A stretch of DNA of 61,606 bases from Elusimicrobiota bacterium (GTDB taxonomy: Bacteria; Elusimicrobiota; Elusimicrobia; UBA1565; UBA9628). Made by a program: the position numbers and the translations under genes. How positions within the stretch are numbered: the stretch's first letter is position 1; each line of letters begins with the position of its first letter. Positions 7,942-24,419 of this stretch are shown here, in pieces. The notes beneath the pieces are model-generated. The model was not told the origin of the DNA, did no database searches, and was given only the letters and a program-made list of their open reading frames with translations. Location: NCBI GenBank assembly GCA_027327915.1, contig DAHVWT010000002.1, positions 1-61,606 of the forward strand, in the 5' to 3' direction.

Positions 7942-9047
7942 TCCCCCGCATCCCCTCTCAAGCCCGCCCCTTGCTCCGCCGCGTCGCGGGGAAAGCCGGG
8001 GATCTCGGGCTCCCCCTCTTCGCGGTCGGCGGCTGCGTGCGCGACTGGCTTCTGGGACGACCGACGCTGGACGTCGACCTCGTCGTCGAAGGCGACCCCG
8101 GGCCTCTGGCCGAATGGGCGGCCGGGGCTTTTGGGGCGCGGGCCGAATCCTTCGGGCAGTTCGGGACTTGGCGGCTCCTCAAGGCCGGCTGGCGGCTCGA
8201 TTTCGCCCGGGCGAGGCGCGAGGAATACCCCAAGCCCGCCGCGTTGCCGCTCGTCGCCCCCGCGCCGATCGCGGAGGACCTCCTGCGCCGGGACTTCACG
8301 ATCAACGCCCTGGCGCTCCCGCTAGGCCCCCGAAACGAGGGAGAGCTTCTCGACCCGGCCGCGGGCTTGGCGGACTTGCGCGGACGCGTCCTGCGGGCCC
8401 TGCACGCGGAGAGCTTCCGCGACGATCCGACGAGAGTCTTCCGGGCGGCGCGCTTCGTTTCACGGCTCAAGCTCAAACCCGCCCCGGGGCTGTGGACCAT
8501 GGCCCGGGAAAGCCTGCGCCAGGGATGCCCCGGCCTCCTCTCCCGAGCCCGGCTGCTTCACGAGCTCTGGCGCATCCTTGAGGAAAAAGACCCGGAACGA
8601 CCCTTAAAAATCCTGGCGCGGCTGGGATACCTCGACGTGGTTTATCAAGGACTCAAGCCGCCGCCGGCCGCGCTGCACGCCCCGGGGGAGCGCCTGGGCG
8701 CCATGGCCTTGAGATTGGGGCCGCGCGGCAAGGATTGCCTGGCATCGCTTCCTCTCGACAAGTCCTTGGCGCTCGAGCTCCGCGAGACCTTGGAGGTCGC
8801 CTGCCATCGGCGCAGTCCCAGAAGGGCGCTTCCCCGGCCCAGCCTCGCGATCTTACGGACGGCTTTCCCCCGGCTGCCACGGGCGGCCCTGCGCCCCCTC
8901 TTCATCGACGGCGAGGATCTGCGCGCGCTCGGGATGGCTCCCGGCAAGGCCTTCGGCGAAGCCCTCGACGACGCGGCCAGGGCTCAATGGCGGGGACTCA
9001 TCCGTTCCCGTGCCGAAGCGCTTCGCTGGCTTAAGAACCGGCTTTAA
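7938..9047 (+). CDS. cca: tRNA nucleotidyltransferase (CCA/A-adding, class II)
   Basis: VGGCVRD...DVDL, EDLLRRDFTINA and SFRDDPTRVFRAARF motifs. Confidence 0.85.
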   Translation: MIPRIPSQARPLLRRVAGKAGDLGLPLFAVGGCVRDWLLGRPTLDVDLVVEGDPGPLAEWAAGAFGARAESFGQFGTWRLLKAGWRLDFARARREEYPKPAALPLVAPAPIAEDLLRRDFTINALALPLGPRNEGELLDPAAGLADLRGRVLRALHAESFRDDPTRVFRAARFVSRLKLKPAPGLWTMARESLRQGCPGLLSRARLLHELWRILEEKDPERPLKILARLGYLDVVYQGLKPPPAALHAPGERLGAMALRLGPRGKDCLASLPLDKSLALELRETLEVACHRRSPRRALPRPSLAILRTAFPRLPRAALRPLFIDGEDLRALGMAPGKAFGEALDDAARAQWRGLIRSRAEALRWLKNRL

Positions 9048-11218
9048 GGTTTGGCGCCGGCGACGGCCCGTCCCGAGACGATCATGTCCCCCACGATCTC
9101 GACGCCCTCCTCGAGATCAAGGTCCGGCGTTTCGGCGGCTCCGGTGCTGACCGCGACCGACGCCGCGGCGGAGGACACGGCGGGCGGCGCCGTGGCGCCC
9201 GAGATCTCCTCGAGCGTCACTTCTTTCGATTCCAGGAACGGCGATTGATGGCGGGCCAGCACCGCGTCGCGGTGCTTCTGCCAGGCTTCTTCTTCTTTTT
9301 TCTCCTGGAGACGCTTCGCCCAGACCAGAGACACCCTTTTTTCTTCCTTTGTTTTGCGGTAGCGCCGCATCTCTTGGCGGACGAGGGCGAAGCCGTTCGA
9401 GGCGGCGATCCTTTTCTCGCTTTTCCGCCTCAGATCGGGCAGCTCCGCGGCGACGTCACCGGCAGGGTGGAAGGGCAATGGAGCGATCTGATCGAAGGGC
9501 AGGGCGTAGGGAAGCGAGGCTTCCGTGAAATCCATCAAATCCTCGACCGAGGGCAGCTGGATGTCCGGAATCACGCCTTTGAGTTGGGTCGAGTGCCCCG
9601 TGATGCGGTAAAACTTCTGGATCGTCAGCTTAAGCGCCCCCGCCTTCCGTCCGGCCTCCCCCGTCAAATAGCGGCTCAATTCAAGAACAGCCTGGACCGT
9701 TCCCTTGCCGAAAGTGTCCTTGTCCCCGACGATCACCGCCCGATCGTAATCCTGAAGGGCCGCGGCCAGGATTTCCGACGCGGAGGCCGAGGCGCGGTTG
9801 GTCAGGACGACCAGCGGCCCTTGATAAAGAGGGGCCGTCTCGGGCGTGCCCAGGACGCGGACGTCCCCTTCCTCGTCGCGGACCTGCACGGCGGGCCCCT
9901 TGGGAACGAACAGCCCCGCCATGGAGATCGATTCCGAAAGAGAGCCGCCGCCGTTGTTGCGCACGTCGAGCACCACGCCGTCCACGCCCTTGCTCTCGAT
10001 ATATCGCAGGAGCTTCATGACGTCCCGTGCGGAGCTCTTGGGCCTGAACGCGGTCTGCATGTCGAGATAGAAGGAGGGCAGCGAGATGATGCCCACCGCG
10101 GCTTTCTCCCCGGACGCGAGGCCGATCCTCACGATACGCGCTTTCGCCTCGCGGTCCAACAAGTTAATCTTGTCGCGCACGATCGTCACGATCCGTCTGT
10201 GGGTCGGATCGGCGGCGAGCGCGGGGATCACCTTGAGACGCACCAGGGTGCCCTTCGGCCCGCGAATGAGCTCGACGACATGGTCGAGGCGCATCCCGAC
10301 GACGCTGACGAAGGGTTCGTTGCCCTGAGCCACGGCTTCGATCTTGTCGTTGGGTTTGAGGCGGTGGCTTTTCTCGGCCGGCCCGCCCGGGACCAAGCGC
10401 ACGATCTTCGCGTAGCCATCCTCGGAGGAGAGAACCGCCCCGATGCCGAAGAGGGAGAGCCCCATCTCGATGTTGAAAGTCTCTCGCCGGGGCGGCCCCA
10501 TATAGTCCGAATGAGGGTCGTAGGAGTGGGTGAGGGCCAGGAGGTACTCCTCAAGAACGTCCGAGCTTTCGAACTCCTCATAGCCCTTCAGAAGCCGATC
10601 GTATCGCTTCTCGACGTCGGAGGCGGCGGCTTCGGGCTTGGTCTTGTTGAGCCGTTCGGCGATGAGATCGTATTTAACCCGGCGGCGCCACAAGTCCTCC
10701 GCCGCGGCCACGCTCGCGGGCCTGGGGATGTCGTGGCGATCGAGAATGATCGACTCGGGGACCGTGAAGTTGGTCTGAGTATGCGCGTAGCGGCGGACCC
10801 AGGCGTCAAGATCCCGCAGCCGCCCGAGGAAAACCTTGAAAATCTCGTAGGCCGGGGAAAGATCGCCGTCCTTGAGGCGCCGGCCGAGCGTCCGGCCGAA
10901 ACGCGCCTTGAAGCGCCGGACGTCGGGCTCGATGAAGATCATGTGGTTGTAATCCAGGGAATCGAGATAATTCTTCAGCATGCGCTCCGACGTGGCGGCG
11001 TCGATCGGATGGCGGTCGTAATGCTTGGTCTCGAGCAGCCTTGCCGTCACCTGGGCGATGGCGGGGCCGAAGCGGGTCGGCTCGAGCGGCGCCGAGACCG
11101 CCGTGGCGGGCGCGGCCGCCGCGGCAGGAGCGGCGGGCGCCGCTCCCAGGAAGCGGGCGCACGGAAGGAGGAGAACTAAAGCGAGGGCGGCGACGGCAAG
11201 GCTCCGTGACGCGATCAT
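9044..11218 (-). CDS. prc: Carboxy-terminal processing protease (S41A, Prc/Tsp)
   Basis: DPHSDY, GIGAVL PDZ loop, LDVRNNGGGSL, SASASEI, TFGKGTVQ. Start is ATG 11218 (GTG 11263 is an alternative). Confidence 0.92.
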   Translation of the reverse strand: MIASRSLAVAALALVLLLPCARFLGAAPAAPAAAAAPATAVSAPLEPTRFGPAIAQVTARLLETKHYDRHPIDAATSERMLKNYLDSLDYNHMIFIEPDVRRFKARFGRTLGRRLKDGDLSPAYEIFKVFLGRLRDLDAWVRRYAHTQTNFTVPESIILDRHDIPRPASVAAAEDLWRRRVKYDLIAERLNKTKPEAAASDVEKRYDRLLKGYEEFESSDVLEEYLLALTHSYDPHSDYMGPPRRETFNIEMGLSLFGIGAVLSSEDGYAKIVRLVPGGPAEKSHRLKPNDKIEAVAQGNEPFVSVVGMRLDHVVELIRGPKGTLVRLKVIPALAADPTHRRIVTIVRDKINLLDREAKARIVRIGLASGEKAAVGIISLPSFYLDMQTAFRPKSSARDVMKLLRYIESKGVDGVVLDVRNNGGGSLSESISMAGLFVPKGPAVQVRDEEGDVRVLGTPETAPLYQGPLVVLTNRASASASEILAAALQDYDRAVIVGDKDTFGKGTVQAVLELSRYLTGEAGRKAGALKLTIQKFYRITGHSTQLKGVIPDIQLPSVEDLMDFTEASLPYALPFDQIAPLPFHPAGDVAAELPDLRRKSEKRIAASNGFALVRQEMRRYRKTKEEKRVSLVWAKRLQEKKEEEAWQKHRDAVLARHQSPFLESKEVTLEEISGATAPPAVSSAAASVAVSTGAAETPDLDLEEGVEIVGDMIVSGRAVAGAKP

Positions 11219-11259
11219 AAGCGCATTGAGAGGACCGAGCCTCCCCTGGGACGGGGGCT

Positions 11260-11787
11260 TCACGATTCGGGCTTCGCTTCGGATTTCGGCGATTCGGCCA
11301 GGAACGCCTTCATCGCCTTGAGGCACTCGACGGCCCTCGGCGCCTCGCCGTAGGGGATGCGGACTCCCTTTTTGGACCAGCCCTTGTAATTGGCGTCTTC
11401 GACCCACTCCCGCAGGTCGATGCCGATGGAATCCCTAAACCGCGCCACGCGCAGCACGAGTTCGACTCCGGCCCTGCGGGTGTAGCGCGCAAGCTCTTTT
11501 TCCGAGGCGGCGGCGCCGTCCGGGGGCAGGGCTTCGATGGCCTTCATCATCCCGGCGACAATCTCGGCGGTCAGCGTCACGCCCGCCTTCGTCGGCCCGG
11601 TATATTCGCCGCTCTTAAGAAAAGTCCGTATCGAGACATAGGGATGCCCCCGGTAGACATCCGCGTAGAAGACTAGTTCCGTGGTGGGAGAGACCGGAAT
11701 CCTGCCAAATTCCTTGACCGGCTTGAAGGCCGGGTTGCCGGCCTTCTCTGGCTTTTCATCGGGCATAAGTCGAGGGGAAAGCTTCAA
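11260..11787 (-). CDS. Protein with two tandem PC4/YdbC-like ssDNA-binding domains
   Basis: Two repeats: YRGHPYVSIRTF...GPTKAGVTL and FRDSIGIDLREW...GWSKKGVRI, both resembling PC4 DIRE[YW]...P-KKGISL. Start is TTG 11787 or ATG 11766. Confidence 0.7.
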   Translation of the reverse strand: MKLSPRLMPDEKPEKAGNPAFKPVKEFGRIPVSPTTELVFYADVYRGHPYVSIRTFLKSGEYTGPTKAGVTLTAEIVAGMMKAIEALPPDGAAASEKELARYTRRAGVELVLRVARFRDSIGIDLREWVEDANYKGWSKKGVRIPYGEAPRAVECLKAMKAFLAESPKSEAKPES

Positions 11788-11870
11788 CTCAAGTATACCG
11801 AAGTCAGAGCGCTAAGTCGAATATCCATCATCCATCTCGCCGTCTATATCTGTAGTAATATAGTGTCCTC

Positions 11871-12764
11871 ATGGAGAAAACATCGACCTTCGACCCCAAG
11901 GCTTTCGACCAGATGTCCGCGGGCATTTGGAACGAAGCCGCGCAACACTACGACCAACTCAGCCGGCTCCTCTTTGGAGCCGTCACCGACGAATTTATCC
12001 GATTCTCCGGCATCCGGCCGGGAGAAAAGGTCCTGGATATCGCCTGCGGCCCCGGCGCCGCGAGCCTCCGCGCCGCCGCGGCCGTTGGGCCCCGGGGGAC
12101 GGTCGACGCCGTCGATTTCGCGGAGAAAATGATCTCCATCGCCTCGACCCGGCCGCGTCGGGACGATTCGGCGCCGATCGTTTGGCGGCGCATGGACGCC
12201 CAGCGTCTGGAATTCCCCGGCGGCTCCTTCGACGCCGTGATCTGCCAGCTGGGCCTCATGCTCTTCGCCCGGCCGAAGCTCGCTCTAGGCGAAATGGCGC
12301 GGGTCGCCAAGCCCGGCGGGCGAGTCTCCTGTCTCGTCCAAGGGGAAGCGGCCAAGATGCTGTTCACGAGCCTTCTTAACAAGACCATGGTCAAGCATGT
12401 CCCCGAGCTCAAGATCCCGGGCGCCCCCACGATCTACGACTTCGGCCCGCCGGGAGTCCTGGAGGACGCTCTTTCCCAGGCGGGCCTCGCGCGCGTCGAG
12501 TCCCGGCGGCTGTCGGGCAAATTCCATTTCGAGTCCCCGCAAGCCTATTGGGAGACGATGGCTTCCGGAGCGGGCCGCACGGGCGTCTTGATCCAAAGCC
12601 TCGAACCGGCCAAGCGGCAGGCTCTTAAAGAGGAAGTGCTGGCCAAGTCCGCGGCTTTCGTGACGCCGGATGGATTTGAAATCCCCTACGAGTTCGTGAT
12701 GGCCAGGGGCCTGAAGAAGTCTAACGCCGCCGCTGGGAAAGCATCCGGCGCACCGTCCGCTTGA
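11871..12764 (+). CDS. Class I SAM-dependent methyltransferase (UbiE-like)
   Basis: VLDIACGPG, DAQRLEFPGGSFDAVIC, EMARVAKPGG. Confidence 0.88.
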   Translation: MEKTSTFDPKAFDQMSAGIWNEAAQHYDQLSRLLFGAVTDEFIRFSGIRPGEKVLDIACGPGAASLRAAAAVGPRGTVDAVDFAEKMISIASTRPRRDDSAPIVWRRMDAQRLEFPGGSFDAVICQLGLMLFARPKLALGEMARVAKPGGRVSCLVQGEAAKMLFTSLLNKTMVKHVPELKIPGAPTIYDFGPPGVLEDALSQAGLARVESRRLSGKFHFESPQAYWETMASGAGRTGVLIQSLEPAKRQALKEEVLAKSAAFVTPDGFEIPYEFVMARGLKKSNAAAGKASGAPSA

Positions 12765-14886
12765 GATCCTCCAAATCGAAGGGCTTGGCGAGGCAAGCCG
12801 CCTCCGTTTTCCGCAGGAACTCCAGAACACGCGGGTTGAGGATATCCCCGGTGATGAAGAGAAACTTCGAGGCCCATCCGGGATCGCGCTCGATCAGGGC
12901 GGCGTAAAGGTCGGGCCCCTTGGTCTTTTCCATCTCGAAGTCGCTGATGATAAGGTCGTAAGGCCTTTCGATCGCGATCCCCAGGGCCTCGGGCGGATCG
13001 ACGACGTCCGCCACGTCCCCCTCGTCGCGCAGGAATCTCGCGATGATCTGGGCGATATCCGTCTCGTCTTCGACCACGAGGACCCGGCAGCCGGGGACAG
13101 GCGGCAAGATCTCCATCTCGCCGGCCGCGGGCTTCAAGGCCGCCAGGTCTTCCGGCGCCGAGCGCGGCAGGAAAAGGCGGAACGAGGCTCCTCCCTTCTC
13201 GAGATTTGAAAAGCCGATCGACCCGCCGTGCTCCTCGGCGATCTGCCGGCAGATCGAGAGTCCGAGCCCCGTCCCCCGCCCCGGCTCTTTCGTCGTGAAA
13301 AATGGCTCGAACAAGCTCCCCTGGACGGCCTCCGGGACCCCGGTGCCGTTGTCCTCAACCAGGATTTCCGTCCTCTCTCCGTTCTGACGGGTGCGCACGG
13401 CGAGGCGCTTGCCTTCCCGACGAGGCGGCGCCGTTTCCATGGCGTCGCAGGCGTTGTTGATTAAATTGACCAGGACCTGCACGATCTGCTGGAAATCCGC
13501 GACGATCTCGCCCATGGGGGAGGCAAGGTCGAGGTCCACGGCGACATCCTCGGTCTTCTTGAGGCGATATTCGAGGAGTTCCACGGCCGCTCGGACGGCG
13601 ACGTTCACGTCCACGCGCGACTTCTCGCCGCCGCCGCGGCGAACGAAGAAGAGGAGGTTTTCCACGGCCTTGCGGCAACGCAAGGCGCTGTGCTGGACGC
13701 GGCGCAGGTCCTCGCGCAGCGATTCCGGCGGATTCTGGGTGAAGATGATTTGAGCGTACCCGCAGACGGCCGCCAGGGGATTATTGAGTTCGTGGGCGAC
13801 GCTCGATATCAGCTGCCCGACCGCGGAGAGCTTCTCCGATTGGATGAGTTGGGCCTGCAGGAGGGTCCTGCGCTTCCGGTTGTCCTCGAGGTTTCTCGCC
13901 ATCTCGTTGAAGGCCCCGGCGAGCGCTCCCATCTCCCCCCCGTCGGCAAAGGCGACGCGATAATCGAGCTTGCCCTTCCCGATCTCCCGCGCGGCCTCGG
14001 CGAGAGCGGCAAGGGGGCGGGTGTTGGAATAACAAAACAGCAGGATCGCCAGGACCACGATGGCGGCGGCGGCGCAGCCGATGGCGATTCCGAAGTCGCG
14101 AACGTGCTCGAGCGGGCGCAGGAACTCGGCCCGCGGCGCCATGGCCATGACCGTCCATGGCATCGCTTTCAAAGGAACGGACGCCGTGAGCGCCGGCCGC
14201 CCGGTCTCGCTTGGCGGAGCGGGGAACGCCTGGCGCGCCATCTGGATCCAGGCCTGCCCTCCCTTTCCCAGCCGGCTCGCCTTCAAGAGCGCCGAGATGG
14301 GGCCCAGGTCGTAGGCCAGCGCGAGCACGCCCTCGAAATCCCTCGCCTCGTCGCGAAGCGGCGCCGCGAAATAGAGGGCGACGCGCCCGTCTTTCAGGAG
14401 TTCCGGCGGAGAAACCCACGCGGCGCCGGACGGCAAACGGCGCGCCGCGACGAAGAAACCAGCCGAGCGCAGCGCCTCCCCGGGAGGCAAGGCTCTCCCA
14501 TCCTCGATATGGCAGACGGCGCGGCCGCGAGCATCCGCGAAAATAATGGCGTCGTAGACGGCGGAGCGCCGCGATAATCGCAGCAGCGACGCCTCCAGCT
14601 CCCGGCGGTAGGACTCGGCCTCGGCCTTCAGGGCGTAGTCCTCGCTCTGGTGGTAATCGGAGATAAGCGGCGAGTCCGACAGGGTCAGGAGCTCGTTGCG
14701 GCGCTCGCGGAGCAGGCCGTCGATGGCGGTCGCCGTGAGCTCCGTACGGTTGTGGATTTCCTGGTTGACCCCCGCCAGGATTCGGCGGCGGCTTAAATAA
14801 TACTGCGCGCCGACGACCACGACGATGCCCGCGATCACCACGGGAACGATGGCAAGAATGAGCCGCCAGCGCAGAGTCTTGGGCAC
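12721..14886 (-). CDS. Hybrid sensor histidine kinase (TM-Cache-like-TM-HAMP-HisKA-HATPase-REC)
   Basis: SVAHELNNPL H-box, QVLVNLINNACDA, DNGTG, FEPFFTTK, GTGLGL, C-terminal receiver (VVEDE...ISDFEM...KPF). GTG start 2 nt after the cupin stop. Confidence 0.92.
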   Translation of the reverse strand: MPKTLRWRLILAIVPVVIAGIVVVVGAQYYLSRRRILAGVNQEIHNRTELTATAIDGLLRERRNELLTLSDSPLISDYHQSEDYALKAEAESYRRELEASLLRLSRRSAVYDAIIFADARGRAVCHIEDGRALPPGEALRSAGFFVAARRLPSGAAWVSPPELLKDGRVALYFAAPLRDEARDFEGVLALAYDLGPISALLKASRLGKGGQAWIQMARQAFPAPPSETGRPALTASVPLKAMPWTVMAMAPRAEFLRPLEHVRDFGIAIGCAAAAIVVLAILLFCYSNTRPLAALAEAAREIGKGKLDYRVAFADGGEMGALAGAFNEMARNLEDNRKRRTLLQAQLIQSEKLSAVGQLISSVAHELNNPLAAVCGYAQIIFTQNPPESLREDLRRVQHSALRCRKAVENLLFFVRRGGGEKSRVDVNVAVRAAVELLEYRLKKTEDVAVDLDLASPMGEIVADFQQIVQVLVNLINNACDAMETAPPRREGKRLAVRTRQNGERTEILVEDNGTGVPEAVQGSLFEPFFTTKEPGRGTGLGLSICRQIAEEHGGSIGFSNLEKGGASFRLFLPRSAPEDLAALKPAAGEMEILPPVPGCRVLVVEDETDIAQIIARFLRDEGDVADVVDPPEALGIAIERPYDLIISDFEMEKTKGPDLYAALIERDPGWASKFLFITGDILNPRVLEFLRKTEAACLAKPFDLEDLKRTVRRMLSQRRR

Positions 14887-14888
14887 GA

Positions 14889-15260
14889 CTAGCGCCTGAT
14901 ATCCGGCTTGCGAAGATCGAGGGCGGGAACGAAAACGGACATGACCTCGCAACCCGATTGGCCCGCCCGGAATTCGTGCGCGGCTCCAGGCGCGAGATGC
15001 GCGTATTCCCCCTTTCGCATCCGCCGGGGCCGGCCGTTGATGACGGCGAGCAAGGTTCCTTTCGTGACGAGAAAAAATTCCGAGGTACGCGCATGCCAAA
15101 TGGCCGGATGGCTCGCTCGCGGCTTCATCGCGATCCTAAAAATTGAAAAACTCCTGCGCCCGGTTTCCGCGGCCACGCTGTCGACCCACAGCGTGCCGAT
15201 GGGCCGGGCGCTCCCCCTCCCCCAACGGCCAAAGCGCGCGGACGCCGGCTTCGGCTTCAT
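14889..15260 (-). CDS. Cupin domain protein
   Basis: WH...EFFLVTKG and GEYAHLAPGAAHEF cupin motifs; ATGA overlap with the upstream gene. Confidence 0.8.
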   Translation of the reverse strand: MKPKPASARFGRWGRGSARPIGTLWVDSVAAETGRRSFSIFRIAMKPRASHPAIWHARTSEFFLVTKGTLLAVINGRPRRMRKGEYAHLAPGAAHEFRAGQSGCEVMSVFVPALDLRKPDIRR

Positions 15261-16828
15261 TCGAAGGAGCTCCGATAAAAGTAGGGCATGCCGGTTTTGT
15301 AGGGAACGAAATGGACATCCTTGGCCACGCCGTAAGTCTTGATACGCTGATACGTAAACAGGCTCAAGGCTTGGTCGTGGACATAGCGATCCAGCTCCTG
15401 GCCGGCCCGGTCCTGATTCGACGGATCGAGCGTCGAAGTCATTTTCGCCATCAAACGGTCGAAGACGGCGCCCTTATGGATGCTGTAGGGGGAGTGGGAT
15501 GATAAAAAAATGAACTGAATGAAGAAGGAATGCGACAGGGGGTCCGGGCAGCCCCCAAAGGTGAAATCCCAGCCGCCCCGCTGAATATCGCGGATGACGG
15601 TGGCATCCGTCGTTTCCGTCGTCACGAGGCGGATGCCAACCCGCTCCAATTGGCGGGCGATGATCCGCAGGGTCCTCTCCCCTTGAACCTTGACGACTCC
15701 CTTGAGCGTCAGCCCTCGCGGGTAGCCCGCTTCCCGAAGGAGCCTTCGGGCCTTGGCGGGGTCATAGGGGTAGGGCGTCAAAGCCGGGTCGTGGCCGATC
15801 TCCCCCTCCATTGTCAAGGAAGGCAACTCCGAGCCGTTGCCGAGCAGGTCATACCGGATCAGATCGGCTCGATTGATCGCGTAGTTGATCGCGCGCCGCA
15901 CTCGGACGTCGGAAAGGGCGCTCGAACTCACGTTGACGCTGCCCGCGACGGTGTAGAAAACCGCCTTCTTCACGATCTTGGCGCGGCCGCTTTTCATCAC
16001 CGCCATGGTTGCCGTCCCGGGGAGCTCCGTGACAATATCCACCTGCCCGTCCAAAAGACCGGCGACTTGCTTGGCCGTTGGAAGAAATAAAAACGTGAGC
16101 CCATCGAATTTGGGGAAACCCTTGAGCCAATAGTCCCCGTTGGCCGCGAGGTGGATGGCCTTGCCCGGCTCCCAGGAGACGAATCGGAAGGCCCCGGTCC
16201 CGACGGGATGCCGGCCGAAATAGTCGCGCCCCTTCTCGGCCAAATAACGCGGCGGCAAGATCGGGACGAGCCCCGCCAAACGGTGGAGGAGGATGCCGTC
16301 CGGGTATTTCGTCTTGATGCGGACCGTCAGTGGGTCGACGGTTTCGGCGCCCGCGATCGAGTCGAGCATCCCCGCGCCGGGGAAAGCCGATCGGGGATCG
16401 ATGAATTTTTCGACCGTGGCGCGGACGGCCTGCGCGTCAAAAGGCTCCCCATCGTGGAATCGGACCCCGCGGCGCAGCTTGAATTCCAACGTTTTGTCAT
16501 CGACCCACCGCCAGCTCGTCGCCAGGTCGGGCTCCAGGCGCCCGTCGGGACCAAAGCGGACCAGGCTGTCGAAGATCTGCTGGACGATCGTATAGTACTT
16601 CTCGGAAAATTCCTTGAGCGGGTCAAGGCTGGCCGGCTCGACGACGTCGTCGGATATTCTGAGAATGCGTCGCGAAACCGCGGGAGAAGACGCAAGCGCG
16701 ACGGCCGGGAATAAGACGAGAAGGCTAAGGCTTGCGGCCGACGACGGCCGACGAGGGATAGATCGTATCGAGCGCGACGCGCTTATGGCGGATCTCCCGG
16801 AGTCCAAACCGCCGCATCCAGCGGACAT
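15257..16828 (-). CDS. Family 5 (DppA/OppA-like) extracellular solute-binding protein; start uncertain
   Basis: SLDP, IFDSLV, PDLATSW, FKLRRGVRFHDGEPF, PVGTGAF, DVRVRRAINYAINR. Confidence 0.9.
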   Translation of the reverse strand: MSAGCGGLDSGRSAISASRSIRSIPRRPSSAASLSLLVLFPAVALASSPAVSRRILRISDDVVEPASLDPLKEFSEKYYTIVQQIFDSLVRFGPDGRLEPDLATSWRWVDDKTLEFKLRRGVRFHDGEPFDAQAVRATVEKFIDPRSAFPGAGMLDSIAGAETVDPLTVRIKTKYPDGILLHRLAGLVPILPPRYLAEKGRDYFGRHPVGTGAFRFVSWEPGKAIHLAANGDYWLKGFPKFDGLTFLFLPTAKQVAGLLDGQVDIVTELPGTATMAVMKSGRAKIVKKAVFYTVAGSVNVSSSALSDVRVRRAINYAINRADLIRYDLLGNGSELPSLTMEGEIGHDPALTPYPYDPAKARRLLREAGYPRGLTLKGVVKVQGERTLRIIARQLERVGIRLVTTETTDATVIRDIQRGGWDFTFGGCPDPLSHSFFIQFIFLSSHSPYSIHKGAVFDRLMAKMTSTLDPSNQDRAGQELDRYVHDQALSLFTYQRIKTYGVAKDVHFVPYKTGMPYFYRSSFE

Positions 16829-17741
16829 AGTCCTCTAGAGTATAGACGTTTCCGCGTCCGGTGAAAACAAGGAGATGGACCGCCAGCATGGCGACGAATT
16901 TCGAGTCGCGTCCGCCCGGGTCGCGGACGTAGTCGTGAATCACGAGCCGCCCGCCGGGCTTGAGCGCCCGCACCGTTTTTTCAACGAGCCGTTCGTTGTT
17001 GGCGGAGCTCTCCATGTGCGTGACGTTCGACAGGAGAGCCAAGTCGTAGGCTTCCCGCCCCAGATCGTCGCGCAGAAAATCGGCGGGCTTGAACCGGAAA
17101 CGGCGCGCCCGCGGATGCGCCTTGAGGATCCTCCGAGCGACGCGGATCGTCTTGGGATAATCGAGCAGCGTCGCCTCGATCGTGGGCTCGCGCTCCACCA
17201 GGGCCCGGCTGTAGACGCCGGGGCCGCAGCCCACGTCGAGCATCCGCCCGACGCCTTTCAGGTCGAGCTGGGAGGCCAGGTCCCGCGCTGGAGTCCAGGC
17301 GACGTCGCCCATCGCCCTGACGTAGTCCGGCGTGAAGCTCTTCTTCGCAATCCAATCGACGAGAGCGCGCCGCGGACGCCCCCGGCGAAGGACTCCCTTC
17401 AAGTCCGACCACGCCTCCCACATCCTGTTCTGGTATCTCATGTTGGCGCCCCGGTAATGAGGGCTCGTGGAGACGAGCAGCTTCCTTGAAAGCGGGGTGT
17501 TGGCGTAATGGCCGCCTTGTTTATCGAGGAAACCGAGCGCCGACACCGCGTCCAGCACGATCCCGACGGCCCTCGCATCCAGCTTCAGGGCGCGGCCCAG
17601 GGCGCTGGCGCTCGTCCGTCCACGATCGATCCAACTGAAAAGGTCGTAGTCCAGGGCGACCAGGAGCGGCTTGGAGTCGCGGTAGGCGAGGGCGGCGTCG
17701 AGAAGCCTGTTGTGCTCCTCAACGAGCGCGACGCGGCTCAT
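16725..17741 (-). CDS. O-methyltransferase with N-terminal dimerisation domain (CrtF/ASMT-like)
   Basis: N-terminal wHTH-like region ending YANTP; LDVGCGPG; ADFL; LSNVTH; LKPGGRLVIHD. Confidence 0.88.
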   Translation of the reverse strand: MSRVALVEEHNRLLDAALAYRDSKPLLVALDYDLFSWIDRGRTSASALGRALKLDARAVGIVLDAVSALGFLDKQGGHYANTPLSRKLLVSTSPHYRGANMRYQNRMWEAWSDLKGVLRRGRPRRALVDWIAKKSFTPDYVRAMGDVAWTPARDLASQLDLKGVGRMLDVGCGPGVYSRALVEREPTIEATLLDYPKTIRVARRILKAHPRARRFRFKPADFLRDDLGREAYDLALLSNVTHMESSANNERLVEKTVRALKPGGRLVIHDYVRDPGGRDSKFVAMLAVHLLVFTGRGNVYTLEDYVRWMRRFGLREIRHKRVALDTIYPSSAVVGRKP

Positions 17742-19489
17742 GCGGCAGCCGGAATCCCCGCGAGAGCGCGCCCGACGTTCGCGACCCGCGCCCCCATCGG
17801 CGGGACCTCGTGGAGATCGGCGGCGACATCGAGGACGCAGGGCCCGCCGCCGCGGAAGGCCTCCCGCAGGGCGCCCGCCATCTCGCCGGGGCGGTCGACT
17901 CGAAACGCCGCGGCTCCCATCGCCCGGGCGATGTCGACGATGTTCAGCCTTCCAGCAAACATCGAGCTTTTGAATTTGCCGCCATAGAGCATCCGCTCGC
18001 CGTGGTAAATCATGCCGTGGCCGCCGTTGTTGACGACGATCCAGACGACGGGCACGCGGTGTTCGACCGCCGTGTGAATTTCCATGCCGTTCATGGCGAA
18101 GGCGGCGTCCCCCACCAGCGCGGCGACGACGCGGCCCGGGGCCGAGAGCTTGCCGCCGATGCTCGCGGCGACCGCGAAGCCCATCCCCGCCAACCCCATA
18201 TTGACGAAGAAGGAATTCTCCCGCAAGACGGGGAAATGGGCCCCGGCCCAGGTCCGGATCGTCCCATTGTCGACAAAGAGAGCCGCGTCCCGCGGAAGGG
18301 CCCGGCGAAGCTCCCCGAGGATACGCCGGGCTCCCAAGGGCCCCAACCCAGCCGTGTCCTCCGAATCGTCCGTCGGGAGCTTCGCCGGGCGGATGAATTC
18401 ATGGCGCCGCGGCTTGAATTCCAGCGGGTTTTCCCGCAAGACCCGTTCCATCTCGAACCGGAGCTCCGTCAAGACGGCCCCCGCGTCGCCGGCAAGCCCG
18501 ACCGCGACGGGAAAGTTCCTTCCGATCGCGCCAGGATCGATGTCGATTTGGAGGAGCGCCTTTTTCCTGCCGAGCCGGGCGTCCCAACCGCAGCTGGACG
18601 CCTCGCCGAGGCTCGTTCCCGCGACCAAGACGACGTCCGCCTCGTCCAGGAGATAGTCCCGGGCCAAGTCCGAGCCCGAATAGCCGAAGACGCCGAGAGA
18701 AAGAGGGTGATCCTCGGCGAGCGCCCCCTTGGCCTTGAACGTCGTCGCGACGGGGATGCCGAAGCTCTCGGCGAGCCCCCTTAAGGGATCCCACGCCTGG
18801 GCGAGGTTGACGCCATGGCCCGCGAGCAGCGCCGGTCGGTTCGCGGACAGGAGCCACGATGCGGCTTCCTTGACGGAGAGCCGGTCGAAGGTTCGGGCGC
18901 GCGAGCCGCGCTTTTCCGGGGGAAACATGTCCCGCTCGACCATCTGCGTCATGACGTCGCAAGGAAGATTGACGTGGACGGGGCCGGGCCGTCCGCTCGT
19001 CATCAGGCGCAAGGCCTTGCGGATGACGGGGCCCGTCGCCTCGGGATGATGGATCATCGTGCTCCACTTCGTGACGGGGCGATAGATCTCGACGACATCA
19101 ACGGCCTCGGGACTCGATTCTTGGAAGGCTCCCTTGCCAAAATGCCGGGTCGGGACCTGCGCCGTCAGGACGAGCACGGGACTGTGGTCGGCGTAAGCCA
19201 CCGCGACGCCCGTCAGGGCGTTCGTCGCGCCCGGTCCGGCCGTCGTGCAGCAGACGCCGATGCCGCCGGAGATCCTCGCATAGCCGTCCGCCATGAACGC
19301 CGCCCCTTCCTCGTGCTTGGCGAGAATCGGCGCGATGACGCCGCGCTCGTAGAGGGCGTCGTAAAGGCCGATGACGGGTCCCCCGGGAATGCCGAAGATA
19401 TGACGGACGCCCTCCCGTTCCAAATGTTCGAGAAGCCCATGGACGGCGGGAACGGCGCCGCGATTCCGCTCCGCCGCGTTCGTCATCAA
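17738..19489 (-). CDS. Thiamine-diphosphate-dependent enzyme (acetolactate synthase-like)
   Basis: FGIPGG, KHEEGAAFMADGYAR, TAGPGATN, RPGPVHVNLP, GDAAF...NNGG ThDP motif. No ilvN or ilvC nearby. Confidence 0.92.
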   Translation of the reverse strand: MMTNAAERNRGAVPAVHGLLEHLEREGVRHIFGIPGGPVIGLYDALYERGVIAPILAKHEEGAAFMADGYARISGGIGVCCTTAGPGATNALTGVAVAYADHSPVLVLTAQVPTRHFGKGAFQESSPEAVDVVEIYRPVTKWSTMIHHPEATGPVIRKALRLMTSGRPGPVHVNLPCDVMTQMVERDMFPPEKRGSRARTFDRLSVKEAASWLLSANRPALLAGHGVNLAQAWDPLRGLAESFGIPVATTFKAKGALAEDHPLSLGVFGYSGSDLARDYLLDEADVVLVAGTSLGEASSCGWDARLGRKKALLQIDIDPGAIGRNFPVAVGLAGDAGAVLTELRFEMERVLRENPLEFKPRRHEFIRPAKLPTDDSEDTAGLGPLGARRILGELRRALPRDAALFVDNGTIRTWAGAHFPVLRENSFFVNMGLAGMGFAVAASIGGKLSAPGRVVAALVGDAAFAMNGMEIHTAVEHRVPVVWIVVNNGGHGMIYHGERMLYGGKFKSSMFAGRLNIVDIARAMGAAAFRVDRPGEMAGALREAFRGGGPCVLDVAADLHEVPPMGARVANVGRALAGIPAAA

Positions 19490-19501
19490 TGGCTCTAAAG
19501 G

Positions 19502-20098
19502 CTACGGCGCATCCGGAGCCGCCGCCAACGTCACGCCAAGAAGCCGCGCGGCCTTGGCCAGCAACTGCCCGACATCGAAGGGCTTGCGGAAAAACGCGTC
19601 GATGTGATGCTCGTCGAGCTTGTGCTCGTTGATCGGGACCTTCTTGCCGGTCAGGGCGATGATCCGCACGTATCGAGTTTCGGGGCGCGTCTTGAGAATC
19701 TGGCAGACCTGGAAGCCGTCCATCTTGGGCATCACGACGTCGAGGACGACGAGATCGGGCGGGGACTGGCCGATCTTGATGAGGGCGTCGATCCCGGAGC
19801 TGCTGGCCTCGACATCGAAAACCTCGGCATGCATGCGGAATATCTTTTCCAGCATCCGCGCCATCTCGGGCTCGTCATCGACGATGAGGACCCGGCGCCT
19901 CCCGGCCCGCAGTTCCGCCGGGATAGGCATTTGGAACTGCTTTAAAAAGCGGATCAACTCCTCCCGGGCGACGCGGCGGTGCCCGCCGGGCGTTACATGG
20001 GCCCTGAGCTTTCCCTCGTTGATCCAATGAAGGACGCTCGAAGGGTAGACGTCGCAAAATTTCGCGATCTCATGGGTCGTATAGGTTTTGAAACTCAT
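19502..20098 (-). CDS. Response regulator with N-terminal excisionase/MerR-like HTH
   Basis: TTHEIAKFCDV...WINEGKL...TPGGHRR HTH; receiver LIVDDE...LDVVMP...LTG...KPF. Confidence 0.9.
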   Translation of the reverse strand: MSFKTYTTHEIAKFCDVYPSSVLHWINEGKLRAHVTPGGHRRVAREELIRFLKQFQMPIPAELRAGRRRVLIVDDEPEMARMLEKIFRMHAEVFDVEASSSGIDALIKIGQSPPDLVVLDVVMPKMDGFQVCQILKTRPETRYVRIIALTGKKVPINEHKLDEHHIDAFFRKPFDVGQLLAKAARLLGVTLAAAPDAP

Positions 20099-20164
20099 CG
20101 AGTTACTGAATTTTTACCGTCTATTGATTGCTTTATCCGTATACGGCGTTTACTTTGTTTAGGC

Positions 20165-20194
20165 AATTTACCATGTTCTCGACTTTGCCGTCAA
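20165..20194 (-). promoter_or_regulatory. Putative sigma70 promoter of the signalling operon
   Basis: TTGACG-18 nt-TAAATT with TG extension on the minus strand, in an AT-rich intergenic region. Confidence 0.55.
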
Positions 20195-20230
20195 CGCTCG
20201 CATTGGCGTCACGGGCATCTGGGAAGCTTC

Positions 20231-21064
20231 ATGCGACGGTTATTGATCATCGATGATGACGACGACTTCTCCGACTACCTGGGCCGCTGCCTGGGCATTT
20301 TCGGCTTTCGGACCGCGAGGGCGGAGAATGGCCGGTCCGGCGTCAAGCTTGCCAAGGCCTTTCATCCCAACCTCATCCTCCTCGATTGGATCCTTAAAAG
20401 CGGCTTTTCCTCCAGCGATGTCTTAAAGACGCTCAAATCCGACGACGCCAGCCGCGGCATTCCGGTCGTCATGATATCGGGCATCAAGGAGAGCCCCGAG
20501 GACGCCGAGGCGGCGCGACGCTTTGGCGCGGAGATATTCCTGACCAAGCTCGATATCACGAACAACCCCGAGTCGCTCCTACGACATCTCAGATGTCTTC
20601 TGGCGGGGCCGATATCGCAATTCCCCGGAACCATTCTTCTCATCGACGACGACGACGCCTTCCAGGAGGCGGCGCGCGCGGCCGCCTCGGAGCTATGCTG
20701 CGATCTCCGCGTGGCCCGCGGCGGCGACGAGGGACTGCGGATGGCCTCGAAATTCAGGCCCTCCCTGATCATCCTCAATCTCCAGCTTCCCGATTTCAAC
20801 GGCTTGATCCTCGCCCAGCTTCTTCGGAGCGGTGGCGCGACCCGCGGCGTCCCCATGATCGTGACCGCCGGCGGCTCGGACGCCGAGGAGCTGCTTGGCC
20901 GGGCAAGCGAACTCCAGGCGCGGGCCTTCCTTAAAGACACCGACGCGTACCGGGAGATACGATCCGAAATCGCCGCGGCCCTGGCCTCAGCCTCGGTCCA
21001 GGCGCCCGCCAAGGAGATGAGAAGGACCGGCCCTTGCGGCAAGAAGGGGCGGAGCGTGTTTTAA
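20231..21064 (+). CDS. Double receiver-domain response regulator
   Basis: REC1 LIIDDD...LLDW...ISG...TK; REC2 LLIDDD...ILNLQLP (phosphoacceptor D replaced by N). Confidence 0.85.
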   Translation: MRRLLIIDDDDDFSDYLGRCLGIFGFRTARAENGRSGVKLAKAFHPNLILLDWILKSGFSSSDVLKTLKSDDASRGIPVVMISGIKESPEDAEAARRFGAEIFLTKLDITNNPESLLRHLRCLLAGPISQFPGTILLIDDDDAFQEAARAAASELCCDLRVARGGDEGLRMASKFRPSLIILNLQLPDFNGLILAQLLRSGGATRGVPMIVTAGGSDAEELLGRASELQARAFLKDTDAYREIRSEIAAALASASVQAPAKEMRRTGPCGKKGRSVF

Positions 21065-21279
21065 GCCGAAAAGAGGCGCCCGAGCCAGCGCCGGAACGCC
21101 GCCGCGAGCCCCGAAGGAGGCGGCGCCAGTATCTCGCGCGCCTGGGCGCGGAACTCGGTCTCGGGGCCGCGGAGATTGGGTTTCGCTCCGGCGCCGGCGT
21201 CCGGGAGTCTCTCCAGAGGGTTCAATCCGATCGTCTTGGGCTTGAATCGGGACTTTCGGCCGCGCCTCTGCTTGCTCAC
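21061..21279 (-). CDS. Small hypothetical protein, putative ParA partner
   Basis: GTGA overlap with the parA stop; basic N-terminus, KTIGLNPL motif, amphipathic C-terminus. Confidence 0.6.
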   Translation of the reverse strand: MSKQRRGRKSRFKPKTIGLNPLERLPDAGAGAKPNLRGPETEFRAQAREILAPPPSGLAAAFRRWLGRLFSA

Positions 21280-22040
21280 GAGATTTTCTCCATGAACTCC
21301 CGCGCCAGGGCCCGGTAGTCCTCGGCGCCGGGGCTCGACGGCGCGTAAAGAGTGACCGGCTTGGCAAAGGAAGGGCTCTCGGCGAGCTTCACGTTCTCGT
21401 GTATCTGCGTCGAATAGAGCAAGGGCCCGAATTTATCCTTGAGAATCCGGACCACCTCCATTGAATGAAGCGTCCGCCGGTCGACCCGGCAGGCGAGGAC
21501 GCCGCAAACCGAGAGGCCCGGATTCAGCCTCTCCCTGACGACCGCGACGGTCTCCATCAACGAAACCACGCCCGAAAGCGCCATGACATGGGCCTCGACA
21601 GGGATGAGCACATGGGAAGCGGCGCTCAAGGCGTTCAAGGTCAGGAGCCCCAGGGTGGGCGGACAATCAACGAAGAAATAATCCCAGCGGCCCGCGGGGA
21701 GGTCCGCCACCTTTTTTTTGAGGATGGCCTCCCCCCCGATCTCCCCCGCGAGAGACTTCTCCGCCTTCGATAGCGACAGGGCGGCCGGTATGATTTCGAG
21801 GCCCGCGACGGCGGTCTCGCGCACCAGATCCGGGAAAGCCGCCGCGCCCGCGAGAGCCTGCGCCAACCCGGGCCTTCCGTCCTCCGAAGCGATCCCCAGC
21901 CACAGGGAGGCGCCCGCGGCCGGATCGAAGTCGAGGACGAGAACGCGCTTTCCCGCCTCCGCCAAAGCGGCGCCAAGGTTGACCGCTGTCGTGGTCTTGC
22001 CGCTTCCCCCCTTATGGTTGAGGACGGCGACCCGTTTCAT
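21276..22040 (-). CDS. parA: ParA/Soj family ATPase (orphan)
   Basis: KGGSGKTTT deviant Walker A, DFDP, DCPP, ENVKLAESPS. Confidence 0.93.
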   Translation of the reverse strand: MKRVAVLNHKGGSGKTTTAVNLGAALAEAGKRVLVLDFDPAAGASLWLGIASEDGRPGLAQALAGAAAFPDLVRETAVAGLEIIPAALSLSKAEKSLAGEIGGEAILKKKVADLPAGRWDYFFVDCPPTLGLLTLNALSAASHVLIPVEAHVMALSGVVSLMETVAVVRERLNPGLSVCGVLACRVDRRTLHSMEVVRILKDKFGPLLYSTQIHENVKLAESPSFAKPVTLYAPSSPGAEDYRALAREFMEKIS

Positions 22041-23654: not shown

Positions 23655-24419
23655 ATGCCAGCTCTACTGGAGATCGAGAATCTGCATGTCGCCGTCAAGG
23701 GCCGCCCCATTTTGAAAGGGGTTTCCCTCAAGATTCAAAAGGGCGAAATCCACGCCCTCATGGGCCCCAACGGATCCGGGAAAAGCACCCTCTCCTACGC
23801 CGTCATGGGCCATCCCCGCTACGAGGTGACGGACGGCAAAATCCTCATCGAGGGAAGGGATATCACGGCGCTCCCCCCCTTCGAGCGGGCCCGGCTCGGG
23901 ATTTTTCTCGGATTCCAGTATCCGATGTCGCTTCCGGGCGTCAGCGTCGCCAATTTCATCCGCACGGCGATGAAGTCCGTCAAGGGGGCCGAGGCGGGCA
24001 TCCGAGACTTTCGCAAGACCTTGCGCGAGAAGATGTCGCTCCTCGAGATGGACGAGAAATTCGCCACCCGCTACGTCAACGACGGCTTCTCGGGCGGCGA
24101 GAAAAAGCGGCTCGAGATCCTTCAAATGGCCTGCCTCGCCCCCAAGCTCGCGGTCCTCGACGAGACGGATTCGGGCCTCGACATCGACGCCCTGCGCGTG
24201 GTCGCCTCCGGCATCATGAAGACCGCCGGACCGGAGAACGGCATCCTCCTCGTCACCCATTACCAGCGCATTCTCGACTACGTCAAGCCCCACTTCGTCC
24301 ACGTGTTCAAGGACGGCCGCATCGCGGAGTCCGGGGGTCCCGAGATGGCGCTCGAACTGGAGAAGAAAGGCTACGCCTGGCTCGAGGAAAAGGCCGTGGC
24401 CGCGGAGGCGGCCTCATGA
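23655..24419 (+). CDS. sufC: Fe-S cluster assembly ATPase SufC
   Basis: [29 protein letters not shown]; Shine-Dalgarno AAGGAG. Confidence 0.97.

Follow-up and report, generated by a model that had tools for sequence, protein, structure and literature searches.

A conserved ThDP enzyme, binding protein and sensor kinase cassette in Elusimicrobiota: a possible system for making and sensing a metabolite

Introduction

Could a single compact gene cluster in an Elusimicrobiota genome both make a small molecule and sense it? The question is raised by a stretch of 61,606 nucleotides (the window, meaning the whole stretch of DNA analysed) in which six closely packed genes on the minus strand and one divergent gene place a ThDP enzyme and putative tailoring enzymes next to a binding protein and two-component signalling proteins. 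The original prediction was of a quorum-sensing-like circuit, making a methylated acyloin-derived signal and perceiving it through its own binding protein and kinase. Here, we examine the identity of the enzyme, the conservation of the cluster and its sensing side, and weigh this reading against its alternatives.

Organization of the cluster

The first gene of the operon (19502–20098, minus strand) encodes a response regulator with an N-terminal HTH_17 DNA-binding domain of the MerR/excisionase type and a C-terminal receiver (Response_reg). It is followed on the same strand by a BbmA-type ThDP enzyme of the acetohydroxyacid synthase (AHAS) superfamily with all three domains, TPP_enzyme_N, M and C (17738–19489), a small-molecule O-methyltransferase-type enzyme (OMT; 16725–17741; Methyltransf_2 and Dimerisation), a family-5 solute-binding protein (SBP; 15257–16828; SBP_bac_5, E = 2.9e-72), a small cupin of 123 aa (14889–15260; Cupin_2, E = 8.1e-11) and a hybrid sensor histidine kinase (12721–14886). 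The kinase runs from a transmembrane segment through a periplasmic dCache_1 domain to a second transmembrane segment and then HAMP, HisKA, HATPase_c and receiver domains; its orthologs are mostly about 1030 aa long, with extra GAF and PAS domains. Every domain call of the original prediction holds in Pfam.

The junctions are tight. ATGA overlaps join the ThDP enzyme stop to the OMT start and the SBP stop to the cupin start, and the SBP gene reaches 104 or 83 nt into that of the OMT, depending on whether it starts at ATG 16828 or TTG 16807. From the regulator stop it is 12 nt to TTG 19489 or 15 nt to ATG 19486, the two candidate starts of the ThDP enzyme. The kinase likely starts at GTG 14886, 2 nt past the cupin stop; the first start codon of its reading frame, TTG 15099, would overlap the cupin.

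The 132 nt between the ORF ends at 20099–20230, presumed to hold a promoter and operator, separate the operon from a plus-strand gene (20231–21064) with two Response_reg stretches. The region contains a 10-nt palindrome at 20137–20146. In a same-genus locus the region is 81% identical and keeps 8 of these 10 bases. The double receiver described earlier is real, but among the loci examined it was found in the same genus only: in one of the 41 compared (L014) and in one further locus (L142). Many other loci carry instead a divergent gene of ~120 aa that falls in a receiver-containing (two-component) sequence cluster. Domain scans of the window and neighbour genes showed no Hpt domain that might connect the regulator with the hybrid kinase, a point against a signalling circuit.

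Identity of the ThDP enzyme

The top NCBIfam names for the enzyme are those of the acetolactate synthase large subunit, and it is the sole TIGR00118 match in the genome, but it misses all curated cut-offs (TIGR00118, 390.3 and 389.9 bits against 538.35). It shares with biosynthetic AHAS (IlvB, IlvI or IlvG with IlvN or IlvH) the three-domain ThDP fold, the HEEG region of the catalytic Glu and the GDA...NN motif, and differs in its sub-cut-off score, its want of a small subunit and of ilvC/ilvD, and its clade. The absence of ilvN and ilvC, first remarked on for the cluster, extends to the whole genome (90.81% complete) and to ilvD, and neither TIGR00118 (ilvB) nor ilvC scores above cut-off in any of 41 relatives. 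In the tree, a clade of 62 rows (SH-aLRT 99) contains the window enzyme and leaves E. coli IlvI outside. The separation from true IlvB on which the original prediction depended is borne out by score, gene content and tree, and on this evidence the enzyme is not the AHAS of branched-chain amino-acid synthesis.

The best solved match is BbmA (pdb:8X3X; E = 2.9e-160, 538 bits over residues 12–569), likewise a full-length ThDP enzyme, about 50% identical as judged by eye and sharing an NNGGHG..HxGE stretch. Other solved relatives score lower, among them CsmA (pdb:8X3Z; 289 bits), E. coli AHAS I (271 bits) and benzaldehyde lyase (131 bits). Residues H59, E60, G460, D461, N487 and Gly497 are invariant in the ThDP enzyme alignment, and Gly497 aligns with BbmA G484, the residue altered in one of the three BbmA entries (8XOD, G484F; the others are 8X3X and 8X3Y). 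Its motifs and nearest structures lead us to predict that the enzyme is a carboligase-type relative.

BbmA went unmentioned in the original prediction. A search found no relevant literature on its source organism, reaction or gene context, and short-motif look-ups found no copy of it among the collected loci and proteins.

Conservation of the cassette

Conservation was assessed in 41 Elusimicrobiota loci around ThDP enzyme orthologs and, separately, in 41 related genomes. Around the orthologs, the SBP recurs in 39/41 loci, the HTH-REC regulator in 36/41 and the kinase in 30/41, with SBP and kinase together in 30/41, whereas each of the four flanking genes taken as a control recurs in 1/41; the linkage of the cassette is therefore far above chance. 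These four core genes stay together through at least four gene orders. ThDP enzyme and SBP orthologs share exactly the same 25 of the 41 related genomes, always on the same contig; the two genes are linked and co-inherited, as is looked for in an autoinducer circuit. On the other side of the balance, none of the 41 genomes was found to have the receptor without the synthase, which speaks against the signalling reading. Joint conservation elsewhere, a point on which the original prediction had staked itself, is found across a class of Elusimicrobiota and, in a reduced form of ThDP enzyme, SBP and dCache kinase, at three loci on Rokubacteria-type contigs. Exceptions include two loci (L131 and L135) that have ThDP enzyme and SBP but, over the 9 kb around them, nothing that matches the kinase or the HTH-REC regulator, and one (L133) that is without the SBP.

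The OMT and the cupin are optional accessories, present in 21/41 and 20/41 loci. A methylated product does not hold up as a general feature of the cassette, and a ‘methylated acyloin’ would fit the variant of the window's genus rather than the whole family. The best solved relatives of the OMT are MfnG, RedM and a DsyB-type MTHB methyltransferase; those of the cupin are quercetin 2,3-dioxygenases, and its His/Glu/His triad (H56, E61 and H95) is unchanged in all 16 orthologs aligned. Some loci add a second OMT, class I methyltransferases, an SDR, a Trp_halogenase-type enzyme or a B12 radical-SAM enzyme, which would give the accessory genes a biosynthetic flavour. Outer-membrane channels also lie within some cassettes. 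Three (L021, L129 and L135) have a Phenol_MetA_deg channel; a TonB-dependent receptor occurs in L033, the only one among the Elusimicrobiota neighbours scanned, and in Desulfobulbales-type loci.

In one same-genus genome (G002), the sensor genes are 70–85% identical to those of the window but the ThDP enzyme is only 48% and the OMT 42% identical, indicating that a synthase module has been exchanged beneath an unchanged receptor, a poor fit to a strictly co-evolving pair of signal and receptor.

The sensing side

The SBP begins with a signal-like hydrophobic segment and falls under every NCBIfam equivalog cut-off, its best score being to GsiB (148.4 against 594). The solved relatives nearest in sequence bind peptides, glutathione, opines or nickel, and the solved matches include AibA (pdb:6OFQ), a family-5 binder of AI-2. 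AibA feeds a chemoreceptor, not a kinase. A domain scan of the neighbouring genes found no permease gene in the cluster, as the original prediction had stated; its parallel claim for ATPases needs amending, since an ABC ATPase gene lies at 23655–24419, next to a SufBD gene; it belongs to the Suf system rather than an importer. With neither an adjoining permease nor an equivalog match, the SBP does not have the marks of an Opp, Dpp or Nik importer component. Another contig of the genome (C82) does, however, hold two permease genes together with two of the SBP_bac_5 type in an Opp/Dpp-like set, and the SBP of the cassette could in principle work with it, which counts against the signalling reading.

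The cassette thus pairs its SBP gene, free of permease and ATPase genes, with that of a kinase whose sensor domain is periplasmic. This is the layout of LuxP/LuxQ and TorT/TorS, in which a transporter-less periplasmic binding protein is encoded next to a membrane sensor or acts together with one. Unlike the window SBP, which is of family 5, LuxP and TorT come from different families of binding proteins, and LuxS, the signal synthase, is unlinked. Docking of the SBP on the dCache domain of the kinase gave ipSAE values of 0.60, 0.61 and 0.60, whereas the best of three controls scored 0.00; partner pLDDT was 87 and contact agreement between runs at least 95%. The pass mark was reached by 58/80 solved complexes and 2/110 mismatched pairs, but at scores of 0.60 or below just 7/80 solved complexes pass and both passing mismatches fall there too, so that the calibration grades the result as weak support for docking; the runs used unpaired alignments, and the score may lean on solved SBP–sensor complexes.

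A possible make-and-sense circuit

We tentatively favour, at somewhat under an even chance, the reading in which the SBP and kinase of the cassette sense an acyloin-type metabolite, perhaps an aromatic one, that the cell itself makes. The cytoplasmic BbmA-type enzyme would couple two 2-oxo acids, at least one of them probably bulky or aromatic, to an acyloin or an alpha-hydroxy-beta-keto acid, which in the window's genus would be tailored by the OMT and the metal-dependent cupin. The product would leave the cell and be captured in the periplasm by the family-5 SBP, for which no transporter genes adjoin, and the loaded SBP would dock on the dCache domain of the hybrid kinase. Kinase output would then alter phosphorylation of the HTH_17-REC regulator, which would act on the 132-nt divergent promoter and hence on its own operon. 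The geometry, namely the signal-like N-terminus of the SBP, the dCache domain between two transmembrane segments and the outer-membrane channels of some loci, points to the periplasm and the outside.

CqsA/CqsS and LqsA/LqsS are clustered pairs of a synthase and a sensor kinase gene that use a small signal of acyloin type; CqsA and LqsA are PLP enzymes, and their kinases bind the signal in a membrane domain. Here, by contrast, the candidate synthase uses ThDP, sensing would fall to a periplasmic SBP and a dCache kinase, and none of ten ORFs scanned across 9044–22040 matched any PLP-enzyme family. ScyA (scytonemin) and CybE (cyanobacterin), to which the window enzyme is likened by description rather than by sequence, resemble AHAS and join aromatic 2-oxo acids; their gene clusters also contain methyltransferases or halogenases. 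To our knowledge, no in-operon binding protein has been described for those clusters.

The broader proposal is a new class of chemical communication, in which ThDP carboligases act as autoinducer synthases read by a transporter-less SBP and a dCache hybrid kinase across a class of uncultured Elusimicrobiota, with swappable tailoring enzymes diversifying the system. Beyond this phylum, the same enzyme clade would be tied to different signalling machinery: to kinases in Rokubacteria, Desulfobulbales and Myxococcota, and to STAS/SpoIIE partner-switching modules elsewhere. As a whole, we consider the proposal possible but on balance doubtful.

Alternative explanations

The strongest alternative is an ordinary secondary-metabolite cluster that makes a pigment, an antibiotic or a protectant and is controlled by the two-component system next to it. 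Its SBP and kinase would respond to something from outside, for example peptides, a metal complex or a compound released by plants or microbes, and not to the product of the cluster. Biosynthetic clusters with adjoining two-component regulators are common, that for scytonemin being an example. The variable tailoring genes resemble those of a biosynthetic gene cluster family, the exchange in G002 spared the sensors, and the ligands of the solved SBP relatives are of the right kind. The SBP gene, however, sits inside the operon amid the biosynthetic genes, pairs one-to-one with the ThDP enzyme in 25/25 genomes and keeps its linkage through rearrangements, which is tighter than expected of a generic environmental sensor; we hold this alternative to be unlikely, if a serious one.

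A less probable account is sensor-controlled uptake and detoxification or catabolism of an exogenous aromatic compound, captured by channel and SBP, reported by the kinase and transformed by a ThDP lyase or decarboxylase together with the methyltransferase, a cupin dioxygenase and an SDR. The Phenol_MetA_deg channels in three loci, the TonB-dependent receptor in one, the quercetin dioxygenase likeness of the cupin and the SDRs of some loci all suit it. Yet the cassette has no inner-membrane transporter, carboligases (AHAS and glyoxylate carboligase) score well above decarboxylase and lyase types such as benzaldehyde lyase as relatives of the enzyme, the halogenase and B12 radical-SAM genes suggest anabolic tailoring, and the genes scanned beside the cassette include no more degradation genes, in genomes that are small.

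More improbable still is a metallophore system, in which a ThDP-derived chelator re-enters through an outer-membrane receptor, is bound by a NikA/CntA-like family-5 protein and is sensed as its metal complex by the kinase. Nickel and metallophore binders do occur among family-5 relatives, TonB-dependent receptors are present in L033 and the Desulfobulbales-type loci, and the same DNA turns up again in metagenomes from mine drainage and tailings; against this, there is no inner-membrane importer, the SBP scores far under the NikA (128.8 against 393) and CntA (76.9 against 800) cut-offs, and among the scanned Elusimicrobiota neighbours the receptor is confined to one cassette. We know of no ThDP-made metallophore. 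That the enzyme is simply the organism's AHAS for valine, leucine and isoleucine, as its NCBIfam names and its standing as the genome's only TIGR00118-like gene might suggest, is largely refuted by the missed cut-offs, the missing ilv genes and the tree.

Significance

The Elusimicrobiota are almost wholly uncultured, and we are aware of no signalling chemistry for them. If the make-and-sense reading is true, ThDP carboligases would join the short list of autoinducer synthases, and the receptor arrangement, in which a dCache kinase takes its input from a family-5 binding protein, would be new as well. The cassette is compact, and its four core genes lend themselves to study in E. coli with no need to culture the host. 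The BbmA enzyme family, otherwise visible here as crystal structures only, gains a biological context. Even without a signalling role, enzyme and SBP share precisely one set of genomes and so form a conserved module, as yet unexplained, that deserves labels other than ‘acetolactate synthase’ and ‘peptide ABC transporter substrate-binding protein’.

Gene content and layout

The genome to which the window belongs is a 1.99-Mb metagenome-assembled genome, 90.81% complete, and public records label close homologs of the window's proteins Elusimicrobia or Elusimicrobiota. Pfam analysis agrees with the gene content first read from the sequence. Six genes on the minus strand (12721-20098) encode a regulator with HTH_17 and receiver domains (HTH-REC), a three-domain ThDP enzyme, an O-methyltransferase (OMT; Methyltransf_2 with a dimerization domain), a family-5 binding protein (SBP; SBP_bac_5), a Cupin_2 protein and a dCache_1-HAMP-HisKA-HATPase_c-receiver hybrid kinase. 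Divergent from this cassette, on the plus strand, lies a gene for two receiver domains (REC-REC; 20231-21064). The junctions look operon-like, with two ATGA stop/start overlaps, 2 nt between the cupin stop and the probable kinase start (GTG at 14886) and 12 to 15 nt ahead of the ThDP gene. Only the SBP ORF departs from this pattern, sharing 83 or 104 nt with that of the methyltransferase.

The kinase dCache domain lies between two hydrophobic segments and the N-terminus of the SBP is signal-like, so both sensing parts should face the periplasm. Most orthologs of the kinase are ~1030 residues long with extra GAF and PAS domains; the window encodes a shorter version. The cupin is probably a metalloenzyme, since its His-Glu-His triad is kept in 16/16 aligned sequences. 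In the translation of REC-REC, inspected by eye, Asn occupies the expected phospho-accepting Asp position of the second receiver, which may be a pseudo-receiver.

The divergent promoter region contains one weak inverted repeat and, in AT-richer intergenic sequence, a perfect 10-nt palindrome (20137-20146) with 8/10 bases kept in the same-genus locus; with this single close relative for comparison, no claim for an operator is possible. On the far side of the cassette, a 175-aa ORF with a PC4 (transcriptional coactivator p15) domain (11260-11787, minus strand; E 1.4e-12) sits between genes for a Tsp protease and a UbiE-type methyltransferase. At 23655-25831 on the plus strand, an ABC ATPase gene and the SufBD gene after it open a Suf operon for iron-sulfur assembly; the ATPase does not serve the cassette SBP as a transporter. 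Of the sampled words of 12721-21064, half or more were present in each of 12 public DNA runs from seven studies, labelled mine drainage, mine tailings, sediment or plain metagenomes (one unlabelled); the assembly may come from two of the 12, and the public sequencing runs matching this interval included no RNA run.

Conservation across Elusimicrobiota

Orthologs of the ThDP enzyme (E <= 5.1e-130) occur in 25 of the 41 genomes of the same order, and a contig end in another carries a fragment. Across the phylum they were found in 28/301 sampled genomes, all within one class, with 0/88 and 0/89 in two large families. SBP orthologs (E <= 1e-60) occupy exactly the same 25/41 genomes, on the same contigs, a co-occurrence without exception among genomes that, being related, are not independent.

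The original prediction had proposed looking for the gene set elsewhere, and its members do recur together. The window's proteins were mapped by tblastn onto 41 Elusimicrobiota loci around ThDP genes, presence being a match within 9 kb; four of these loci (L034-L037) may share genomes with the main sample, and kin are not independent. Counts were taken from tblastn because crude ORF calling had missed overlapping genes, including the window's own cupin and the OMT of locus L017. The SBP was present in 39 loci, HTH-REC in 36, the sensor part of the kinase in 30 and its core likewise in 30, the OMT in 21 and the cupin in 20. Many of the misses fall at contig ends; real exceptions, with ~9 kb of flank on each side, are L133 (no SBP) and L131 and L135 (neither kinase nor regulator). 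Four control neighbours (ParA, the Tsp protease, the UbiE-type methyltransferase and REC-REC) were each found in one locus of the 41, that of the same genus. Conservation covers the cassette but not its flanks.

The commonest order is regulator-ThDP-(OMT)-SBP-...-kinase. Others are regulator-kinase-ThDP-SBP (L134), ThDP-SBP-...-regulator-kinase (L136, L137), ThDP-SBP-regulator up to a contig end (L138) and ThDP-OMT-regulator-SBP-cupin-kinase (L142), and in L025 and L026 the regulator is on the opposite strand. Through these different orders the four core genes, for regulator, ThDP enzyme, SBP and kinase, stay together.

Accessory genes vary between loci and lie between SBP and kinase or beside them. 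They include a second OMT in some loci, a class I methyltransferase (L019, L028, L030, L137), an SDR (L021, L023, L137), a Trp_halogenase-type flavoenzyme (L025, L033), a B12-binding radical-SAM enzyme (L026), a TonB-dependent receptor (L033) and a Phenol_MetA_deg outer-membrane channel (L021, L129, L135). In the same-genus genome G002, identity to the window is 85% for the regulator, 77% for the SBP, 70% for the kinase and 62% for the cupin, against 48% for the ThDP enzyme and 42% for the methyltransferase, both at a different operon position. There (L142, contig G002:C271, 1814-9374) the much less similar ThDP enzyme and OMT lie before the regulator gene; identity and position point to a joint exchange of the two enzyme genes. 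Genome families are intermixed on the ThDP tree, which points to transfer within the class.

The ThDP enzyme

The best NCBIfam names for the ThDP enzyme are acetolactate synthase, yet it falls under every curated cut-off, scoring 390 bits against 538 required for TIGR00118, the family of the biosynthetic AHAS large subunit (IlvB/IlvI). It is the only TIGR00118-like gene in its genome, where, at 90.81% completeness, ilvC, ilvN and ilvD were not found. The TIGR00118 cut-off is passed by none of the 41 genomes of the order, and the same is true of ilvC; all 14 control genomes pass in these searches. The absence of ilvN and ilvC originally noted for the cassette holds for the genome as assembled and, for ilvC at the curated cut-off, for its relatives. 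With both cut-offs at 0/41 (the window's genome and 40 relatives), the order appears unable to make branched-chain amino acids.

None of ten scanned homologs passes TIGR00118, so E. coli IlvI was taken as the reference. A maximum-likelihood tree of 78 ThDP proteins, built by a quick method with IlvI as root and with ScyA and CybE left out, puts the window's enzyme in a 62-row clade (SH-aLRT 99) to which neither IlvI nor the PRK08322-type enzymes belong; this is the separation from IlvB on which the original prediction depended. Among solved proteins the nearest is BbmA (PDB 8X3X; E 2.9e-160, 538 bits, residues 12-569), with CsmA at 289 bits and E. coli AHAS I at 271 bits. Gly497, invariant among 13 aligned orthologs, aligns with the BbmA residue changed in entry 8XOD (BbmA G484F), and the enzyme has Gly where AHAS I carries Gln. 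The BbmA stretch NNGGHG(L/M)VHLGE is also present in one Elusimicrobiota subgroup. Literature searches of limited coverage and motif look-ups returned nothing relevant on the role or source organism of BbmA, or on CsmA. A homolog search seeded with an ortholog of the f6 type gave, among 120 listed, only the names 'thiamine pyrophosphate-binding protein' and 'acetolactate synthase', and in the ESM Atlas the enzyme matches generic ThDP clusters only.

Relatives outside the phylum

In other phyla, the best 80 of at least 600 stretches were considered, retrieved with search patterns favouring non-IlvB relatives, so they are no census. Among the matches listed, relatives at 40 to 47% identity stand in several signalling contexts. 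In two contigs of Rokubacteria and an unclassified one, the ThDP relative comes before an SBP_bac_5 gene and a gene for a dCache-HAMP-GAF hybrid kinase, and in four Myxococcota contigs a kinase of ~600 residues precedes it. The Desulfobulbales-type and Pseudomonadota loci L045, L047, L049 and L052 carry TonB-dependent receptors, a sulfotransferase, an SDR, a condensation-like protein, two sensor kinases and two periplasmic binding proteins (ABC_sub_bind and Phosphonate-bd). Pfam, run on representatives of L045 and L047 (both Desulfobulbales-type), places sCache and PAS kinases after the ThDP relative; for L049 and L052, ORF clustering points to a like gene set and arrangement. A ~285-aa protein without a Pfam match (cluster c6) adjoins the related enzyme in six Myxococcota and Desulfobulbales-type loci (L042, L045, L047, L048, L052, L056).

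A further group among the matches listed is flanked by STAS, SpoIIE and RsbW-like genes and is without the Gly497 motif; these enzymes may do something else. A STAS-domain gene lies ahead of the related enzyme in L040, L050, L051 and L055, one of them a Methanomicrobiales contig, and SpoIIE-type phosphatase and RsbW-like kinase genes are near it in L040 and L050, a partner-switching context.

A proposed make-and-sense circuit and its alternatives

We tentatively read the cassette as a circuit that makes and senses its own molecule, and put this a little short of an even chance. The ThDP enzyme would condense 2-oxo acids. Its Gly in place of the Gln of AHAS I, the solved relatives of the OMTs (the best include MfnG and hydroxyindole O-methyltransferase) and the halogenases hint that one partner is aromatic. 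Tailoring enzymes would complete the molecule, which would pass from outside into the periplasm, helped in some lineages by dedicated outer-membrane channels, and load the SBP. The SBP would then act on the dCache domain of the kinase, and HTH-REC would close the loop at the divergent promoter.

When the SBP was docked in silico on residues 32-262 of the kinase, ipSAE values were 0.60, 0.61 and 0.60 against 0.00 for three controls, which the method itself grades as weak support; the alignments were unpaired and the model possibly remembers solved SBP-sensor complexes. The partner had a pLDDT of 87, and contacts agreed to at least 95% from run to run. In the calibration 58/80 solved complexes and 2/110 mismatches reached the pass mark; of these passing cases, scores at or below 0.60 account for only seven of the 80 solved complexes and for both mismatches. 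The quorum-sensing-like circuit originally proposed, in which synthase, receptor and two-component system are encoded together, is borne out in part: its parts list and their conservation are computed, and we infer every step of the flow.

The swap of the enzyme module in G002 favours another reading, a secondary-metabolite cluster under the control of sensors that respond to some external cue. We consider it unlikely; an SBP that is located inside the operon and co-occurs so strictly with the ThDP enzyme speaks against it. Uptake with detoxification or catabolism of an aromatic compound, to which the outer-membrane channels, the cupin and the SDR would be suited, we consider improbable: an inner-membrane transporter is missing, the ThDP enzyme has its affinity with carboligases, and halogenase and radical-SAM genes fit poorly. 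A metallophore variant is very improbable, and AHAS function, rejected on the cut-offs, the absent ilvN, ilvC and ilvD, the 0/41 relatives and the tree, is scarcely credible.

Relation to known systems

CqsA/CqsS is a clustered synthase-sensor system, and LuxP/LuxQ and TorT/TorS are binding-protein-dependent kinases. The cassette is laid out like both, with a putative synthase clustered with a sensor kinase and with a binding protein that may serve that kinase. Its enzyme is ThDP-dependent whereas that of the CAI-1/LAI-1 family is a PLP enzyme, which places the cassette outside that family. By curated cut-offs the SBP does not qualify as a component of the Opp, Dpp or Nik importers, nor does the ThDP enzyme as an IlvB. 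A literature search of limited coverage found no published description of a ThDP/acyloin quorum-sensing circuit, only unrelated papers being matched; the publication behind BbmA may already describe part of this system. To our knowledge, no signalling chemistry has been described in Elusimicrobiota. A self-contained small-molecule sensing circuit would be of a kind already known; what would be new here is the enzyme class and its pairing with the receptor.
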